NCBI GenBank assembly: GCA_963804955.1
Contig: CAWDSQ010000036.1
Coordinates: forward strand, 12,337-76,336
Length of the DNA: 64,000 bases
Direction: 5' to 3'
DNA from: an uncultured delta proteobacterium
GTDB taxonomy: Bacteria; Desulfobacterota; WTBG01; CAIYCZ01; CAIRTM01
The translations under genes were made by a program, and so were the position numbers. The notes beneath the pieces were generated by a model. That model was not told where the DNA came from. It did no database searches and was given only the letters and a program-made list of their open reading frames with translations. Of the stretch, positions 15,942-45,062 are shown piece by piece. The stretch's first letter is position 1, and each line of letters starts with the position of its first letter.

Positions 15942-16035
15942 GGGGAGATTCTTGATTTTAAAATTGGCGTAAGGGCGGGGTAATTCCCAATACATGTGAA
16001 TGAGATGTATAATAATCGAAAAAACAAAAACCTAT

Positions 16036-16102
16036 TGTCATTCCGGCTTGTCCGGAATCCTTATGCTGCGGTGGGAAAGATTCCGGACAAGCCGGAATGA
16101 CA
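16036..16102. repeat. GTCAT-type REP palindrome; intact example of the IS110 target family
   Basis: TGTCATTCCGGCTTGTCCGGAATC ... GATTCCGGACAAGCCGGAATGACA. Confidence 0.85.
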
Positions 16103-16196
16103 GGCATGGAGTTGTTTTCTGGAGTTTTCATTTCGTTTTATTAATCCACCGGGAGCGGGGGTACCCCCGCATTTTGGATATGCGCGAACCGGCAAT

Positions 16197-27685: not shown

Positions 27686-27739
27686 CGGAGATCATTTTTC
27701 TGCACAGATACAAGGGATTCCCGTCAAGCGGGAATGACA
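27686..27739. repeat. Partial GTCAT-type REP (right part only)
   Basis: ATCATTTTTC...AAGGGATTCCCGTCAAGCGGGAATGACA, near-identical to 42226-42273. Confidence 0.7.
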
Positions 27740-28005
27740 GGGAATGAAGCCATCCAGCTCATGCATGTAACTGTGTTTTGAGTGTCGGTTGCACGATTCA
27801 GTTAATTGCACTAATGAAAATCCGCACGAGCAATCCACCTGTTTGACATCTGAAGCTGAAGCACACAAATTTTTAACCATTGCATAACAAGGCCGGAGTC
27901 GGACATGCATGAGAAATAGGCCCCCGGGCTTTTTTCTATGCTATATTATAAGTTTAATTCTACGCAAGCAGCGTTTCTACTATAACAAAATCAAAGGAGG
28001 GTAAA

Positions 28006-40396: not shown

Positions 40397-40789
40397 AGGC
40401 ACTTCATAGCACAATCCGGGATCAACAGAAAGCCATAACAGAGGGTATCCGTTTTGATTTTTTGTGAGGATCAGCAGGGGGATAGTTTCCAGCCAGAAAA
40501 CGGCGGTCCGGCAACCGGCCTGTAAATTTTTCAAGCCCTTCTCTGGATTTTTTTTAGATATAATTTGACGTGCAGCCGGAATTCAATCTAGAATTACCTG
40601 TAGAGCCTCCTGCTTTGCTGGAGGTGCGGTGACTTTGGCCAGCCACTCATTCAGGTCATGGCCTGGTATCTGTCATGAAGCAAGATACGCAGGAACCTTT
40701 TTTTATGGCATGCAACAAATTACTATAATCAATTATTCATGTGTTGGCGAGCAACAGAGACCTTCGTCATTCCCCTATGTTAAAAGTCA

Positions 40790-41050
40790 AGGGGCACCGA
40801 GAATGAAAGCATTGTTTTTTTCTTGGCTAATAAAGATCACATAACCATATATGCAAGGAACAATCCCTAAAACAATCTCCTATAAGCAGACAGGCCAGCC
40901 AAAGGCAAGAGCCGCTGCATTATCCGCATCATGTTTTAAAGGTGTGGGCCCGCAGTCTGGCTTGGAGCAGACGGGTTAAACCGCTGCAGGAATGACTCAG
41001 CGCTGCCCACAGAAAGAATATAATGGTGATTGTCCTTGTCCTTTGTTTTC
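40790..41050 (-). ncRNA. Predicted bridge/seekRNA (ends approximate); target-binding loop at 40944-41010
   Basis: Stem GUGGGC/GCCCAC enclosing GUCAUUC and CAAGCCAGA, which match both arms of the insertion target. Confidence 0.75.
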
Positions 41051-41059
41051 GGGGTTCAG

Positions 41060-42130
41060 TTATTCAACGATAGCCACAATATAGGGTTGCCGGTTGTTTA
41101 AAACAAAGCGTATTCGGTTCAAAAGTTTCCGGGCAATATGGATGATGGCGTTGTTCTTTTTCAGCCTCCGACACAGCTTATTAAAAGCCAGGGTCAACGC
41201 CGGGTCCTTGCGTACGGCAACCCAGGAGCTCTCCACCAGAATAGCCCGCAGCATCGGGTTGCGGCGCATGGTGATGTTGGTGATGTGTTCTTCTTCGCCG
41301 CTTGATTTTGTATCGGGGATAAGGCCGGCATAGCTTGCCAGCTTATCCAGATTTTTAAATCGGGAGATATCGCCGATTTCGGTTAGCAGTATCATTGCCG
41401 TTAGGGTGCTGATGCCGGGGATGGTTTTTAAAAGCCATACCGCTTCGACATAGTCGTAGGTTCGGGATAGCACAGTGATTTGCCGTGTTAACCCGGCAAT
41501 GAGCTTGCGCAGATGCAGCAGCTCTTCAATGAGGGTTGTCAAGGCTATGGTGCCGCTTGTGTGTTCAAACTGTACTGATTCAAGCCAGCTGATGAATCGA
41601 CGGGACCAGCGCTTTGTTTCCATTTCAGGAGGCAGAAAAACGCCATAAAAGGCCAGAAGTGAGGCAATCTGGTTCTTGCAGCGGGTCTGTTTGCGGACCA
41701 TGCCGTACCGGGTACGTAGCAAGCTGCGATCTTCACGCTGCATACTGCCGGGAATATAAATAGGCTGCAGGTCATGGCTTCTCAAGTTTTTACCCAATTT
41801 GCGGCTGTCGATTTTGTCATTTTTGCCGCGGCGCTGCTTGTCGGTCGTGGGAACATCGGCAGGGTTGACCACCATGGAGTCAACTCCCTGCTGATGAAGA
41901 CTATCATGAATCCAGTAGCCGCAAAAGCCTGCTTCGTAAGCAGCATGATACGAAGCGCCCGGGAACATGCGTTTGAGATAGCCCACAAGGCTCTGTGCAT
42001 TGGGCGGCTGTGTGAATGTTTTATGTTCATGATGTTCGGAAAAAATGCTCACGGTCCAGCTCTTTTTATGAACGTCCATGCCGACGTAGATGTTTTGCCC
42101 GGTAAAATCGGGCTGTACGGTTTGTTTCAT
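41060..42130 (-). CDS. IS110-family DEDD recombinase/transposase
   Basis: VGMDVHK, YEAG, KNDKID, IPGI, GLIPDTKSSG. Confidence 0.95.
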   Translation of the reverse strand: MKQTVQPDFTGQNIYVGMDVHKKSWTVSIFSEHHEHKTFTQPPNAQSLVGYLKRMFPGASYHAAYEAGFCGYWIHDSLHQQGVDSMVVNPADVPTTDKQRRGKNDKIDSRKLGKNLRSHDLQPIYIPGSMQREDRSLLRTRYGMVRKQTRCKNQIASLLAFYGVFLPPEMETKRWSRRFISWLESVQFEHTSGTIALTTLIEELLHLRKLIAGLTRQITVLSRTYDYVEAVWLLKTIPGISTLTAMILLTEIGDISRFKNLDKLASYAGLIPDTKSSGEEEHITNITMRRNPMLRAILVESSWVAVRKDPALTLAFNKLCRRLKKNNAIIHIARKLLNRIRFVLNNRQPYIVAIVE

Positions 42131-42368
42131 GGCAAGCCTCCTTTATGATGAGTACTACCATTTTACTGTAGCATTCTCAGTGTGGCTTGCTTCTTCTTTT
42201 AAACATAGGGTCTGGCTTGTCCGGAATCATTTTTCAGCATACCAAAAGGGATTCCCGTCAAGCGGGAATGACAAGAAATGCTGTCATACAGCTAACGTAT
42301 CCAACTGTTTTATGATTTTTGGTTACAAGATTTAGTTAAATGCTCTAACCGTGCAGAGGGGGAATCTT

Positions 42369-45062
42369 ATGAACGATGACGGCAAAAACAGGCGGCAGCT
42401 TCTGGAAGAGCTGGCGCTGCTGCGCGATAAAGTTGCAGAGCTTGAAGGCGCGGCGGGCGCCGCGCCCGGGGCTGGAATTAAAAATGCTTCCAAAAAAAGG
42501 AAAAGCCCCGCGTTCAAGCTTGACACGGCAGGAGTAAAAGCACCAGGTGAGATCGAGGCTCTCGTCCGGTTCTGTCTCGACAAAGTTCCTGACAGCGTAT
42601 GCCTCACGTCATCCGGAGGCAGAATCCTGTATGTCAATGCTCCTGCCGCAAAAAATCTGGGCTATGCCGTTGAAGAGCTGACAGGAAAATCCATGGCGGA
42701 GCTTGGCCCCAAAGCTCCCCGGGGCGCATGGAAAAAGCGGTGGTCTGAAATAAAGCAGAAGGGCTCATATTTTTTTGAAAGCCATCACATAAGAAAAGAC
42801 GGATCTGTATTACCCGTTGAAGTTATGGCAACCCATATTGCTTTCAGGGGCAGGGAGTATGGCTTTTTTCACGCCCAGGATATCAGCGGCCGCAAATCAA
42901 TAGAACAGGACCTGATAGACCAGAAAAATTTCTATGAAAAGATTCTTGAAACCGTCAATGACGGCATCTGGGTTACAAGCCCGCAGGATGTTATTATCTA
43001 TACCAATAAGGGAATGACAGGGATTTCCGGCATCCCCAAATCTAAAATTGAGGGTGTACATGTCCTCAACGGCTTCCCTGAAGAAACCATAACAAACTTC
43101 GGGCATTTTTACCGTGAGGCGCGAAAAACACTGCAGCCGGTGCAATATGAGGCATTTGTGGTGACGCCGTCAAACAGGGAAACCTGGCAGGCAGGCTGGC
43201 TGATACCGCTGGCGCATCAAGGCCGCTTTAACGGCATGATCTGCACCACACAGGATATTACTATCCAAAAGCAGACGGAGGATCAATACAGGACAATTCT
43301 TGAAACAACGCAGGACGGCTTCACCCTGCTGGATATGCAGGGCCGTCTTCTGGATGTGAACGATGCCTTCTGCGCTATGTCCGGATACAGGAGGGACGAG
43401 CTTTTGCGGATGCGCATCGGTGATATTGATGCGGCCCTGACGCCCCGGCAGATCAAAGGCATAATCAGCGAAGTAAAAAAAAGCGGAGGAACCTTTTTTG
43501 AAACAAGGCACCGGAGAAAAGATGGAAGTATTGTTGATGTGGAAATACGCTTATCGCACTTTGGCGCCGGAGAGGGAAGGATGGCCAGTCTGGCCCGCGA
43601 CATTACCGGGCGAAAGCGTATGGAGGATGAGCTGCGCCAGAGCGAAGCCGTGGCGCGCACGCTCCTGCATATACCCAGCACCGCCATGATGCTGCTTGAT
43701 ACAAAAGCCAGTTTTATTGAAGTCAATGAGACAATGACAAAGCGATTTTGCAGGACACGAGAAGAAATGAGGGGAATGTGCCTGTGGGACATCCTGCCGC
43801 CGCATGTCGCAGAGCTCAGGAAAGGATATTTTGCACAGGCTTTATCAACGGCTGAAATGGTGCGCTGGGAAGATGAGCGGCAGGGCATGTGGAACGACAA
43901 CTCCTTTATCCCGATTACCGATGAGCGCGGAAGATAGTGCAGGTAATAGGATTTGCCGTTGATATAACGGCAGGCAAGCGGGCTGAAATGCTCCTGAAAG
44001 AATCAGAGGAGCGGTACCGGCAAATATTTGAAACATGCGCCGAGGGGATTCTGGTGGCGATATTAAGACCAAGCGCTATACAATATGCAAATCCGGCAAT
44101 GTGCGGAATGCTTGGCTATACCCTTAAGGGGCTGCTGCAAAAGAGCCTGACTCCGCCATCCAACTTCGAAAATGTACAAGCTTTTGAAGAGGCAAAAAAA
44201 TATTTTGCAGAGATTGCCACGGGGAATACGATAACTGGCCGTGCCATCCCCTGCCGGCATAAGGACGGCTCTATTACTCTATGTGAATATAAGCGGCACA
44301 AAGATGAACATTGACGGCCGTGAATACAACGTGGGCTTTTTTACCGACATAACCGAGAGAAGAGCTGTTGAGCAGAAGCTGCAGAAAAGCGAAGAGCTGT
44401 TCAGGCAGACCTTTGAGCGTGCCCCTATCGGCATTGCCATTTTTGACAAAACGGGCACTGTCGTGAATGCGAACTCTTTTTTGTCAACCATTCTCGGTTA
44501 TGCAACGGATGCATTGAAAGAGCATGGTATTGATATGCATTTGCATGCAGAGGATAAGCAACGGAGCATCAAGGCTCTGCTGTCTTCCCTTGAAAAGCTC
44601 CGCGAGCATGCCGTGTGCGAGAAGCGCTATGTCGCCTGTGACGGTCATACGGTCTATGTAAAAGAATATACGCAGGGCATTTTCAGCACAGCGGATGATC
44701 TTGTGTTTCTGATTGTCCTGATTGAAGACATAACCACCCGCATGCAGGCTGAAAACCTCAATATAAATGTTATTACAAAGCTGAAGGATGTGTATAATGA
44801 GCTGCAAGACTTTTCCGCGATGCTGCCTGCGGAGCACAAATTTTCGAAACTTGTGTCCATTCATGATTACAATCTCTCCCCCATGGAGAACAGGGTGGCA
44901 TCATTGATCTATAACAGCTATTCGAATCAAAATATCGCATCAAAGCTCAATATTTCTGAAAATACGGTTAAGCATCACATAACAAGCATCTTCAGCAAAT
45001 TCAAAGTCAGAAACCGCCTTGAGTTTCTAAAAATTATCCGGGAAAAGCGGATAGTTATTTAG
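42369..45062 (+). CDS. Multi-PAS, LuxR-type HTH one-component regulator (frameshifts near 43930 and 44280)
   Basis: About six PAS/PAC units (RKDGS...VEV...DIT) and a C-terminal LSPMENRVA...SNQNIASKLNISENTVKHHITSIFSK; no kinase domain. Confidence 0.85.

Follow-up and report, generated by a model that had tools for sequence, protein, structure and literature searches.

In the window (the whole 64,000-nucleotide stretch of DNA that was analysed), we identify an IS110-family insertion sequence that has an IS1111-type layout and is apparently intact and autonomous; as read from the DNA itself, it encodes a guide RNA that matches the palindromic repeat into which it is inserted. It is an ordinary further member of a family already well described, and both REP targeting and RNA guidance are in the literature; what can be observed here is its anatomy, the structure of its RNA, the matching of guides to flanks and to element ends, empty sites and independent insertions (Table 1). 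Our full reading, an intact IS110/IS1111-type element with a two-loop bridge RNA, a circular intermediate, a junction promoter and exchange between a CT donor core and a CC target core, we hold at a probability of roughly 0.8.

The two-loop RNA is encoded in the region 3′ of the transposase gene and is conserved in 24 related elements. The sequence-only reading was right that the element has terminal inverted repeats but missed this bridge RNA (or seekRNA), with its target and donor loops. Its structure emerged only through homologue comparison: folded as a single sequence, the 3′ region showed nothing significant in its folding energy (z −0.97 and −0.41), and an Rfam scan of 40500-42500 with E up to 1 matched no family. 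Across the 24 homologues, RNAalifold found compensatory changes in 13 of 27 pairs; 95.1% of alignment cells are paired, against 37–45% when the partners are slid, and covariation reaches 0.399, against 0.05–0.08 in the slid-partner controls. A covariance model of the RNA scores 117.8 bits at the present locus, and the clade's model found no match in the IS4321, IS5075 or ISEc45 loci, searches with filters off included.

Both sides of the target loop can be read against the DNA around the element. The 5′ side, GUCAUUCC, is identical to the + strand at 40766-40773 and, being complementary to the top strand in transposase orientation, stands 5′ of CAAGCCAGAC, which is complementary to the bottom strand; the pairing of the latter covers six target bases, the CT core and two element bases, in a handshake-like arrangement. 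Among 19 lineages, the left guide matches 5.0 of 8 positions in its own flank as against 2.5 in the flanks of other lineages, and the right guide 7.2 of 9 as against 3.7; the summed own guide–flank match is 232, a value reached in 0 of 20000 permutations. The donor guide likewise follows the element end in all 24 sequences (ATAGGAG with CATAGG, ATAGAAG with CATAGA, ATAAAAG with CATAAA), whereas on the 5′ side of the donor loop only 3–4 bases can pair with the transposase-proximal end, and covariation there is not clean. Relative to the other lineages, the present one and six more (9 of 24 sequences) have their 5′ target guide one base out of register, and because of this variation the exact cleavage positions are inferred.

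Table 1. Features of the element, its RNA and its target repeat, in window coordinates
Feature	Positions	Strand	Description and basis
Whole insertion sequence	40774..42213	-	1440 bp, donor-derived core counted in; junctions, empty sites, independent copy
Transposase / bridge recombinase gene	41060..42130	-	356 aa, intact; PF01548 and PF02371
Bridge RNA / seekRNA gene	40855..41012	-	Two stem–internal loop–stem modules; 24-homologue alignment, covariation
Target loop, 5′ side, GUCAUUCC	40989..40996	-	Pairs with target GGAATGAC (top strand, transposase orientation)
Target loop, 3′ side, CAAGCCAGAC	40955..40964	-	Pairs with + strand GTCTGGCTTG (42210-42219)
Donor loop, 3′ side, AUAGGAGA	40876..40883	-	Matches far end CATAGG, then near-end AGA, which is the predicted circle junction
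-35-like TTGACT	40785..40790	-	Transposase-distal end; half of predicted junction promoter
-10-like TATGTT	42202..42207	-	Transposase-proximal end; other half of predicted junction promoter
Probable donor-derived core CT (AG in transposase orientation)	42212..42213	+	Invariant junction trinucleotide, guides, published CT core
Probable target-derived core CC	40772..40773	+	Empty sites GTCATT-CC-GGCTTG in 19/20; 5′ guide pairs with CC
Left part of interrupted ~212-bp MITE-like repeat	40701..40773	+	nhmmer profile positions 7-78; alignment with 12 other copies
Right part of host repeat	42214..42355	+	Alignment and profile; rest of palindrome, second arm, terminal inverted repeat
Free-standing palindrome doublet	16037..16101	.	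Two empty cognate sites, 16037-16050 (+) and 16088-16101 (-)

The transposase gene, which is preceded by 83 nt of non-coding element sequence and followed by 286 nt, has an AGGAGG 7 nt ahead of its ATG. Its product bears out the IS110-family identity that had been proposed from the letters of the DNA, matching PF01548 (DEDD_Tnp_IS110, 2.4e-15; the N-terminal, RuvC-like DEDD domain) and PF02371 (Transposase_20, 2.4e-22; the C-terminal Tnp domain) and, remotely, the recombinases of IS621 (E 2.7e-8) and ISCro4 (3.2e-8); within its GLIPDTKSSG segment, SSG aligns with ESG of IS621, the conserved-serine SG motif. By tblastn it shares 24-25% amino acid identity with IS4321/IS5075 over 95% of its length, and 29-33% over about 81-98% with other IS110-family genes of unassigned group. 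Since amino acid identity to IS4321/IS5075 is as low as about 24%, we place the element in the IS1111 group as a likely member, by architecture rather than by a tree.

The insertion lies in one arm of a palindrome that is itself part of a repeat of about 212 bp, of which the genome holds 12 copies that are intact and 2 that an IS interrupts; its terminal inverted repeats are 14 bp long (GTTAAATGCTCTAA, found here within the right part). We call the repeat MITE-like; set against the criteria for MITEs, it shows no clear target duplication, and no parent transposon was identified. The last 8 bases of its left part, GTCATTCC, are the left half of the target; its right part holds the remainder of the interrupted arm, GGCTTGTCCGGAATC (42214-42228), and a second arm, GATTCCCGTCAAGCGGGAATGAC (42250-42272). 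The sequence-only reading had described insertion into a REP, and the site-specific insertion into a REP-like palindrome stands, but the target is this one arm inside the larger repeat and not a free-standing REP.

Empty sites are present in the same genome, as had been supposed: uninterrupted copies of the repeat have contiguous flanks, in which the left and right matches overlap by about 2 bases. The palindrome at 16036-16102 had been put forward as a near-cognate empty site; it carries GTCATTCCGGCTTG exactly on both strands, and the window holds 4 matches to this sequence with at most one mismatch, where chance would give 0.03. Because the T at 42213 is probably borne by the element, as argued below, the canonical repeat is the likely target and the repeat at 16037 offers two empty sites that are fully cognate. 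Genome-wide, AAGC-NN-GAATGAC has 35 copies, 33 of them of two types. The palindromes are short, abundant, intergenic and imperfect, and occur as doublets and as MITE-embedded copies. A search for a link to a REP-associated tyrosine transposase (RAYT) gave two PF01797 hits in this genome (87% complete), neither of them palindrome-flanked within loci of 3.2-3.3 kb.

At the junctions, we revise the core dinucleotide. The TC previously thought to be shared by both ends is probably one base off, the real donor core being CT and the target core CC. We examined 79 loci and parsed 46 junctions, and the trinucleotide at the transposase-proximal junction is AGA or AGG (TCT or CCT on the + strand) in 45 of the 46, whatever the target; the same trinucleotide is written in both guide loops. 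At the base matching T at 42213, 19 of 20 empty sites of the present genome have G and not A (transposase orientation), and in a Nitrospirota genome (G002) that contributes 12 parsed junctions of related elements, 13 canonical and 2 variant REP sites carry G and none A (22 pattern matches). Given the constancy of AGA/AGG, its presence in the guides and the G of the empty sites, we take the T at 42213 to be element-borne, with CT as donor core and CC as target core. In lineages whose far junction reads GG, all 18 copies carry the target core there, and in the second genomic copy a deletion stops exactly at TCT/GGCTTG (the slash marks the junction). By the same token, the circle junction probably differs from the 16-mer predicted earlier at the tenth base, T for C. 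Three exceptions stand beside these counts: relative L074 carries GGA at its proximal junction, the far junction of a 48-bp remnant from a sister genome reads AG, and one empty site in the present genome has the A variant (T on the + strand). Two further placements fail: given the canonical target, a GA core at positions 8-9 cannot yield the A seen at the proximal junction, and a core further left is excluded by the variation of those bases with the target.

A TC core (GA in transposase orientation), with CCCTATG/CATAGGG strictly terminal, would mean that the rare T variant of the site, GTCATTCTGGCTTG, is selected, as the 3′ guide CAAGCCAGA would demand; we consider this unlikely. TC is the sole dinucleotide that is present at both junctions and once in empty sites, and against the T variant the 3′ target guide pairs without a mismatch, but the donor guide AUAGGAGA then mismatches the end ATAGGGGA, whereas it fits the CT-core alternative at 8 of 8 positions. 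An empty T-variant site (C26) does exist in the genome, and the second copy reads TCTGG behind a 2-base deletion; yet the variant makes up 1 of 20 empty sites here and 0 of 15 REP-type sites in G002, and nonetheless stands at the proximal junction in all 12 G002 junctions, in the present element and in L003. With it, moreover, the palindrome arm loses complementarity in its hairpin. AGA/AGG stays constant even among lineages whose targets are unrelated; the far junction has a G in precisely the lineages that have G at this place in their target; and in other lineages the two junctions have different third bases, which means that GA is not generally duplicated.

With the CT core preferred, the limits of the element shift. 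They had been set at 40773 and 42210, with a left junction given as GTCATTC/CCCTATGTTAAAAG and a right junction as CTTTTAAACATAGGG/TCTGGCTTGTCCGGAATC; both are confirmed on the sequence, apart from one surplus T in the right string (CTTTTT typed for CTTTT). The terminal inverted repeat arms, 40773-40785 and 42198-42210, are 13 nt long and 92% complementary without gaps, or 14/15 with one indel, and are kept across the element's relatives; a second, imperfect pair (18 nt, 78%) lies directly internal to them. They are probably not strictly terminal, as had been claimed, because the T at 42213 would belong to the element (core CT 42212-42213) and three bases then lie beyond the repeat at one end. 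The extensions of the present copy are thus 3 bp (AGA) and 0 bp; measured from the family-wide conserved repeat TATGTT(T)AAAAG, that is, from TATGTT.../...AACATA, they are 6 bp (AGACCC) and 2 bp (GG), and the additional CCC/GG(G) complementarity of the present copy falls in programmable donor positions.

The genome holds one full copy of the element and a truncated one, 94% identical, that lies in a further copy of the MITE-like repeat. In a second genome from this genus, a copy of 97-98% identity has the very same junctions but sits in a palindrome that is different and plain, and since independent insertions share identical junctions, the ends of the element are confirmed. Position and orientation of insertion are constant in 4 contexts of the present lineage and in 12 junctions of a related lineage, in line with the IS110-family habit of inserting at one site and in one orientation with no true duplication of the target. 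The host belongs to the Thermodesulfobacteriota, and relatives occur in Nitrospirota, Bacteroidota and Ignavibacteria, and in one Nitrospirota genome they occupy at least 12 different sites. It could be argued that both copies in the present genome arose by duplication or mobilisation of an element-bearing MITE-like repeat and that the element may no longer move here: they sit at the same position of the same repeat family, their divergence (94% identity) resembles that of the flanking repeat halves (about 85-92%), and only 2 of about 35 candidate sites are occupied. We find this very improbable, given that the sequence beyond the repeat is unrelated between the two copies, that the near-identical element of the sister genome sits in a non-MITE palindrome, that gene, RNA and both ends are intact, and that the Nitrospirota relatives are spread over those 12 or more sites.

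For the transposition of this mobile element, we propose the following course, in which circle formation, promoter activity and the order of strand exchange are drawn by analogy. The target loop reads the palindromic repeat GTCATT-CC-GGCTTG on both strands and the donor loop the joined ends of the element, which may excise as a circle in the manner of IS621 and ISEc11/ISPa11. In the computed circle junction, TTGACT is followed after 17 nt by TATGTT, with the same 17-18 nt geometry in 17 of 24 relatives, and the abutted ends would build a predicted sigma-70-type promoter driving both transposase and RNA. The RNA would hold the DEDD/serine recombinase as it exchanges strands of the circle junction (CT) with those of the repeat (CC); after insertion the proximal junction retains the donor core (TCT/GGCTTG) and the far junction the target core (GTCATTCC/CCTATG). 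At the present locus, the targeted palindrome happens to fall inside the MITE-like repeat. Tentatively, and with more doubt than confidence, we suggest that donor and natural target differ at one core base because each half of the target loop encodes a core of its own, CC (GG in transposase orientation) in the half that reads the right target and CT (AG) in the half for the left target; the first, top-strand exchange would set the product, and the second strand would follow by replication or directed repair. The one-sided record of cores (donor core proximal in 45 of 46, target core far in 18 of 18) is unlike random segregation of a heteroduplex core. If this is true, natural insertions of the clade would be an in vivo trace of the order in which a bridge recombinase exchanges strands.

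Among known systems, ISPa11 combines a REP target with a long non-coding region downstream of the transposase and a seekRNA in which the top-strand complement lies 5′ of the bottom-strand one (PMC11187229); it is counted as REP-specific in the abstract of Tobes and Pareja 2006. The present element shares the REP targeting, the downstream non-coding region and the guide order. It differs from ISPa11, an IS1111-family element of Pseudomonas aeruginosa, in host phylum and in the repeat used, a comparison made by description only. Its guide order and downstream non-coding region also agree with those reported for IS1111-type elements by Siddiquee et al. 2024 (PMC11187229), and the right end is where Durrant et al. 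2024 (PMC11208160), in the part consulted, place the bridge RNA of IS1111 elements. Sub-terminal inverted repeats of about 11-13 bp (range 7-17 bp) are typical of the IS1111 group, and the 13-nt arms found here agree with this. Published terminal extensions for IS1111 are 7 (or 6) and 3 bp (PMC11187229), to which the values found here, 3 and 0 in this copy and 6 and 2 family-wide, are close, not equal. IS4321 and IS5075 insert at one position and in one orientation in a repeated palindromic target (PMC11187229); they resemble the present element in a DEDD transposase alignable over ~95%, sub-terminal inverted repeats and a downstream non-coding region, although their target is the ends of Tn21-type transposons and not REPs.

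IS621 and ISCro4 are described, in the available sections of PMC11208160, with a two-loop bridge RNA that reads both strands of target and donor and has the core within all guide pairings; a promoter rebuilt across the circle junction is likewise reported in sections of PMC11208160 and PMC13626964, and a CT core is given for the family (PMC13626964). Read opposite to the gene strand, the present element similarly has the left guide 5′, the right guide 3′ and a core of CT. Unlike in IS621, the RNA lies downstream of the gene instead of upstream, and the proteins are remote (E about 3e-8); unlike IS621 and ISCro4, the present element has long inverted repeats and a natural target core (CC) that is not the same as its donor core (CT). 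According to published abstracts, ISPpu9 and ISPpu10 of Pseudomonas putida have multiple copies in REPs, and ISPpu9 has a small-RNA gene downstream of its transposase, whose product, Ssr9, is reported not to be required for transposition, and forms circles without a hybrid promoter. REP insertion is thus common to both and the present element, and a downstream RNA gene to ISPpu9, but here that RNA bears the guides to target and donor, and the circle junction is predicted to form a promoter. Within the searched supplements of Durrant et al. 2024 (PMC11208160), the end motifs of the element were not found, and a peptide search there returned one related Bacteroidetes cluster with an empty ISfinder field.

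Overall, this element is a further, well-resolved case of REP-directed transposition guided by RNA, from anaerobes that have been little studied, in which guide and target are legible straight from the sequence and the bridge-RNA scaffold is one that goes undetected in canonical IS4321/IS5075 loci. For genome annotation, it means that a 'target' base beside such elements can be element-borne; the boundaries of the element, like the empty site that is predicted, then move by one to three bases. More broadly, the constant difference between a CT donor and a CC target could mark how the two strand exchanges are resolved.

The element consists of one long gene with 83 nt of non-coding sequence upstream and 286 nt downstream, and its transposase is remotely related (E about 3e-8) to the recombinases of IS621 and ISCro4, whose structures are solved; the SG serine motifs align. 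A second imperfect inverted-repeat pair (18 nt at 78%) lies immediately internal to the terminal one. The junctions proposed by the sequence-only reading, GTCATTC/CCCTATGTTAAAAG on the left and CTTTTAAACATAGGG/TCTGGCTTGTCCGGAATC on the right (slash, boundary), are present, although its right-hand string held one T in excess of the window sequence.

Features of the insertion and of its target repeat (window positions unless a contig of the host genome, such as C26, is named)
Feature	Position	Strand	Remarks
IS110/IS1111-like element	40774-42213	minus	limits predicted from a CT donor core and a CC target core
Transposase gene	41060-42130	minus	sole long ORF; 356 aa; PF01548 (DEDD_Tnp_IS110) and PF02371 (Transposase_20)
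Predicted bridge RNA	40855-41012	minus	target-loop module, then donor-loop module
Terminal inverted repeat	40773-40785 and 42198-42210		13 nt, 92% ungapped, or 14/15 with one indel
Interrupted ~212-bp repeat	40701-40773 and 42214-42355		non-coding; encloses palindrome doublet
Other copies of the 212-bp repeat	C26:27270-27485, C11:110987-111197 and 10 more		host genome
Free-standing palindrome doublet	16023-16110		profile match to the 212-bp repeat

A scan of 40500–42500 matched no Rfam family at E up to 1, and single-sequence folding of the region 3' of the gene was uninformative. A one-genome-per-species scan for relatives of the transposase returned 78 loci, the closest of which outside the genus (51–65% identical) come from Smithella and Syntrophaceae, Nitrospirota, Bacteroidales and Ignavibacteria, with more distant ones (38–42%) in Chitinophagaceae. 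Aligned in 24 relatives, the region resolves into two similar modules, each with an internal loop between an outer stem and an inner stem-loop; stems are conserved and loop sides variable. RNAalifold placed 27 pairs on this alignment, 13 of them with compensatory changes; 95.1% of cells pair on the structure versus 37–45% with partners slid by 1–3 columns, the covariation score is 0.399 versus 0.05–0.08 in the slid controls, and in a shuffle test 0 of 500 shuffles reached the observed values for three of five measures. The window copy scores 117.8 bits against a covariance model derived from this alignment, which picks up relatives with protein identity as low as about 40%.

The loops of this RNA match the flanks and ends of the element. 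On the 5' side of the target loop, GUCAUUCC is identical to the plus strand at 40766–40773 and would therefore pair with GGAATGAC of the target, and on the 3' side CAAGCCAGAC pairs with GTCTGGCTTG (plus strand, 42210–42219). The 3' side of the donor loop, AUAGGAGA, reproduces the terminal bases of the distal end (ATAGG) with AGA after them; its 5' side is complementary to the proximal end, the one near the transposase start, over 3–4 bases only. Across 19 lineages, guides match their own left flank at 5.0 of 8 positions versus 2.5 for the flanks of other lineages, and their own right flank at 7.2 of 9 versus 3.7; the summed own match of 232 was reached by 0 of 20,000 permutations. In 13 of the 19 the own flank gives the highest match, alone or tied, and the misses are largely lineages that share a target. 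The donor guide tracks the end sequence in 24 of 24 cases (ATAGGAG with CATAGG, ATAGAAG with CATAGA, ATAAAAG with CATAAA), and the 5' target guide is shifted by one base in the window lineage and six others (9 of 24 sequences) relative to the rest. In bridge RNAs, two loops recognise the target and the donor, each on both strands, and every pairing takes in the core (Durrant et al. 2024, PMC11208160), and in IS1111-type elements the RNA lies downstream of the gene, with the top-strand complement 5' of the bottom-strand complement (Siddiquee et al. 2024, PMC11187229). The architecture predicted here is the one published for bridge RNAs and seekRNAs.

Read in the orientation of the transposase, the element has CAAGCC-AGA-CCCTATG at its proximal junction and CATAGG-GGA-ATGAC at the far one. 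The sequence-only reading took TC (plus strand; GA in transposase orientation) as the core, with the preceding A derived from the target, but several results argue that this A, and hence the dinucleotide AG (CT on the plus strand, 42212–42213), belongs to the element. In 45 of 46 parsed junctions from 79 loci, the trinucleotide preceding the proximal repeat is AGA (29) or AGG (16), whatever the target; the exception, a GGA in the truncated relative L074, equals a target-like core. AGA or AGG stands at the same place in the 3' guides of the target and donor loops, and both change together in Bacteroidales lineages. A Nitrospirota genome with the same palindrome type (G002) has A at 12 of 12 parsed proximal junctions and G at 14 of 14 parsed far junctions, and among 22 pattern matches for its empty sites G occurs in 13 canonical and 2 variant copies and A in none; the host genome has 19 G and 1 A at such sites. 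The palindrome-arm hairpin is completed by a G at this position. Against the donor guide, CATAGG+AGA agrees at 8 of 8 positions and the earlier CATAGGG+GA at 7 of 8. The deletion edge of a second copy, on contig C26, falls exactly on the element/target boundary, TCT/GGCTTG (also written …gaagacta/GGCTTG), and was likewise counted for an element-derived AG. In lineages with other targets, the third base is unequal at the two junctions (for example, AGA versus AGC, AGG or AGT), so duplication of GA is not general; TAACCT-NN-CATAAAAT is the empty-site sequence in one of these lineages.

On the plus strand the invariant donor dinucleotide is CT, the core described as conserved in IS621-type elements (PMC13626964), and IS621 shares the guide order of the element read on that strand (left guide 5', right guide 3'). 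The most economical reading is a donor ...CATAGGGT-CT-CCTATG... and a target GTCATT-CC-GGCTTG, with insertion expected to retain the target core on the window left and the donor core on the right, a geometry that gives an element of 1,440 bp. Given the exceptions to the core pattern (the GGA of L074, AG-AATGAC instead of GG-AATGAC beyond a 48-bp remnant in a sister genome, L114, and one empty site in the host genome with a T variant on the plus strand, A in transposase orientation) and the shifted 5' target guide, the exact scissile positions are ones that we infer. The inverted repeats, claimed earlier to be strictly terminal, are not so, because AGA lies beyond the proximal one. Counted from the family-conserved part of the repeat (TATGTT(T)AAAAG and its partner), 6 and 2 bases extend beyond it, close but not equal to the 7 (or 6) and 3 of IS1111 elements (PMC11187229). 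The extra CCC/GG complementarity of the window copy falls at lineage-variable positions read by the donor loop; the third G of CATAGGG appears to be target-derived, and our predicted circle junction would deviate from the previously predicted 16-mer at its tenth base.

The flanks of the element are parts of a MITE-like repeat with 14-bp terminal inverted repeats (TTAGAGCATTTAAC ... GTTAAATGCTCTAA), for which we saw no clear target-site duplication and no parent transposon. A profile search of the host genome found 56 matches on both strands: 12 uninterrupted full-length copies, in which the left and right element flanks are contiguous, 2 interrupted by an IS, the others being partial copies or palindrome doublets that stand alone. 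CAAGCC-N-GAATGAC (transposase orientation) has 20 exact occurrences in this genome, with G as N in 19 and A in 1. The uninterrupted doublet at 16037, previously described as near-cognate, carries the canonical 14-mer on both strands and thus provides two empty cognate sites. The right half of a further copy of the repeat lies at 27690–27819 of the window and includes GTCATTCCCGCTTG at 27725–27738 (minus). Nearly one and the same palindromic repeat, GATTCC(C/G)GACAAGC(C/G)GGAATGAC, occurs in the host genome and in G002 (L020–L034 and loci L089–L110), which belong to different phyla and carry related IS with transposases 59% identical and guides reading that palindrome. A 232-aa Y1 (IS200-like/RAYT-like) transposase gene of the host genome (L116, C30:145773–146471) is not flanked by the studied palindrome.

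Within the 36 contigs searched (87% complete), the host genome holds the window copy and the one on C26 (L002, C26:94779–96099), which is 94% identical but without the first third of its transposase gene or the proximal end, and which occupies the identical position within the same repeat type. It retains the RNA gene (119.2 bits), with a compensatory change from GCC/GGC to GUC/GAC in the donor-loop hairpin. One of three other genomes of the genus searched carries a full copy, 97% identical, whose site is a plain palindrome outside any 212-bp repeat and whose junctions are identical to those of the window element; a third genus genome has the 48-bp distal-end remnant adjoining AATGAC (G003:C33:8309–8358). 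From these copies, the element appears to be mobile by itself, inserting always at one position and in one orientation.

Two loci among the relatives have unusual joints. At L032 (about 2530–2545), two Nitrospirota copies stand head to tail, and 14 bases are missing around the point where the two ends should join (…TTTTAACA/ATTAAAAGG…). This may be a tandem or circle junction that suffered a deletion, or a palindrome collapsed in assembly. L086, in a genome of the L035 lineage (G001:C1:1547019–1547037), reads TAACCT-AGA-AG-CATAAAAT, with remnants of both junctions and no element, and looks like a footprint of loss through recombination of the proximal-junction AGA with an AGA that lies within the distal end. 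A different IS110-family transposase gene has four copies in the host genome (C7:225434, C24:162902, C30:24632, C30:75291), with open frames of 402 aa in three and 285 aa in one and identical PF02371 scores.

Joining the ends in silico yields TTGACT, 17 nt, TATGTT, and the strict pattern TTG(A/C)(C/T)N, 17–18 nt, TATG(A/T)T is present in 17 of 24 relatives. Promoters rebuilt at the circle junction are a published property of the IS110 and IS1111 families (Durrant et al. 2024, PMC11208160; Siddiquee et al. 2024, PMC11187229), and we predict one for this element. The computed junction of the Bacteroidales relatives (L004–L013, L046, L066) is not TTGAC...TATGTT but TTTG, about 20 nt, TATGTTTG. 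The Bacteroidetes promoter consensus is TTTG / TAnnTTTG, and the resemblance suggests a junction promoter adapted to the host sigma factor.

The long 3' non-coding region, guide order, 13–15-bp inverted repeats and site and orientation specificity are IS1111-type features. The transposases of IS4321 and IS5075 are 24–25% identical to this one and alignable over 95% of its length, and other IS110-family genes (group not assigned) reach 29–33% over 81–98%; the RNA covariance model found no match in the IS4321, IS5075 and ISEc45 loci, even with filters off. Peptide searches of the tree table of Durrant et al. 2024 found at least one clearly related Bacteroidetes cluster with an empty ISfinder field, so the clade is sampled there, in a row that names no ISfinder element. 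Targeting of REP sequences by IS110/IS1111 elements (ISPa11, ISPpu9, ISPpu10 and others; Tobes and Pareja 2006; Pares-Guillen et al. 2025) and RNA-guided target choice (PMC11187229; PMC11208160) are already published, and this element adds a new and cleanly readable member from a bacterial group that is under-sampled. It goes slightly past the textbook picture in three respects: a target inside a MITE-like repeat, short terminal extensions, and a consistent difference between donor and target core with a one-sided outcome that may stem from the way both strand exchanges are resolved in vivo.
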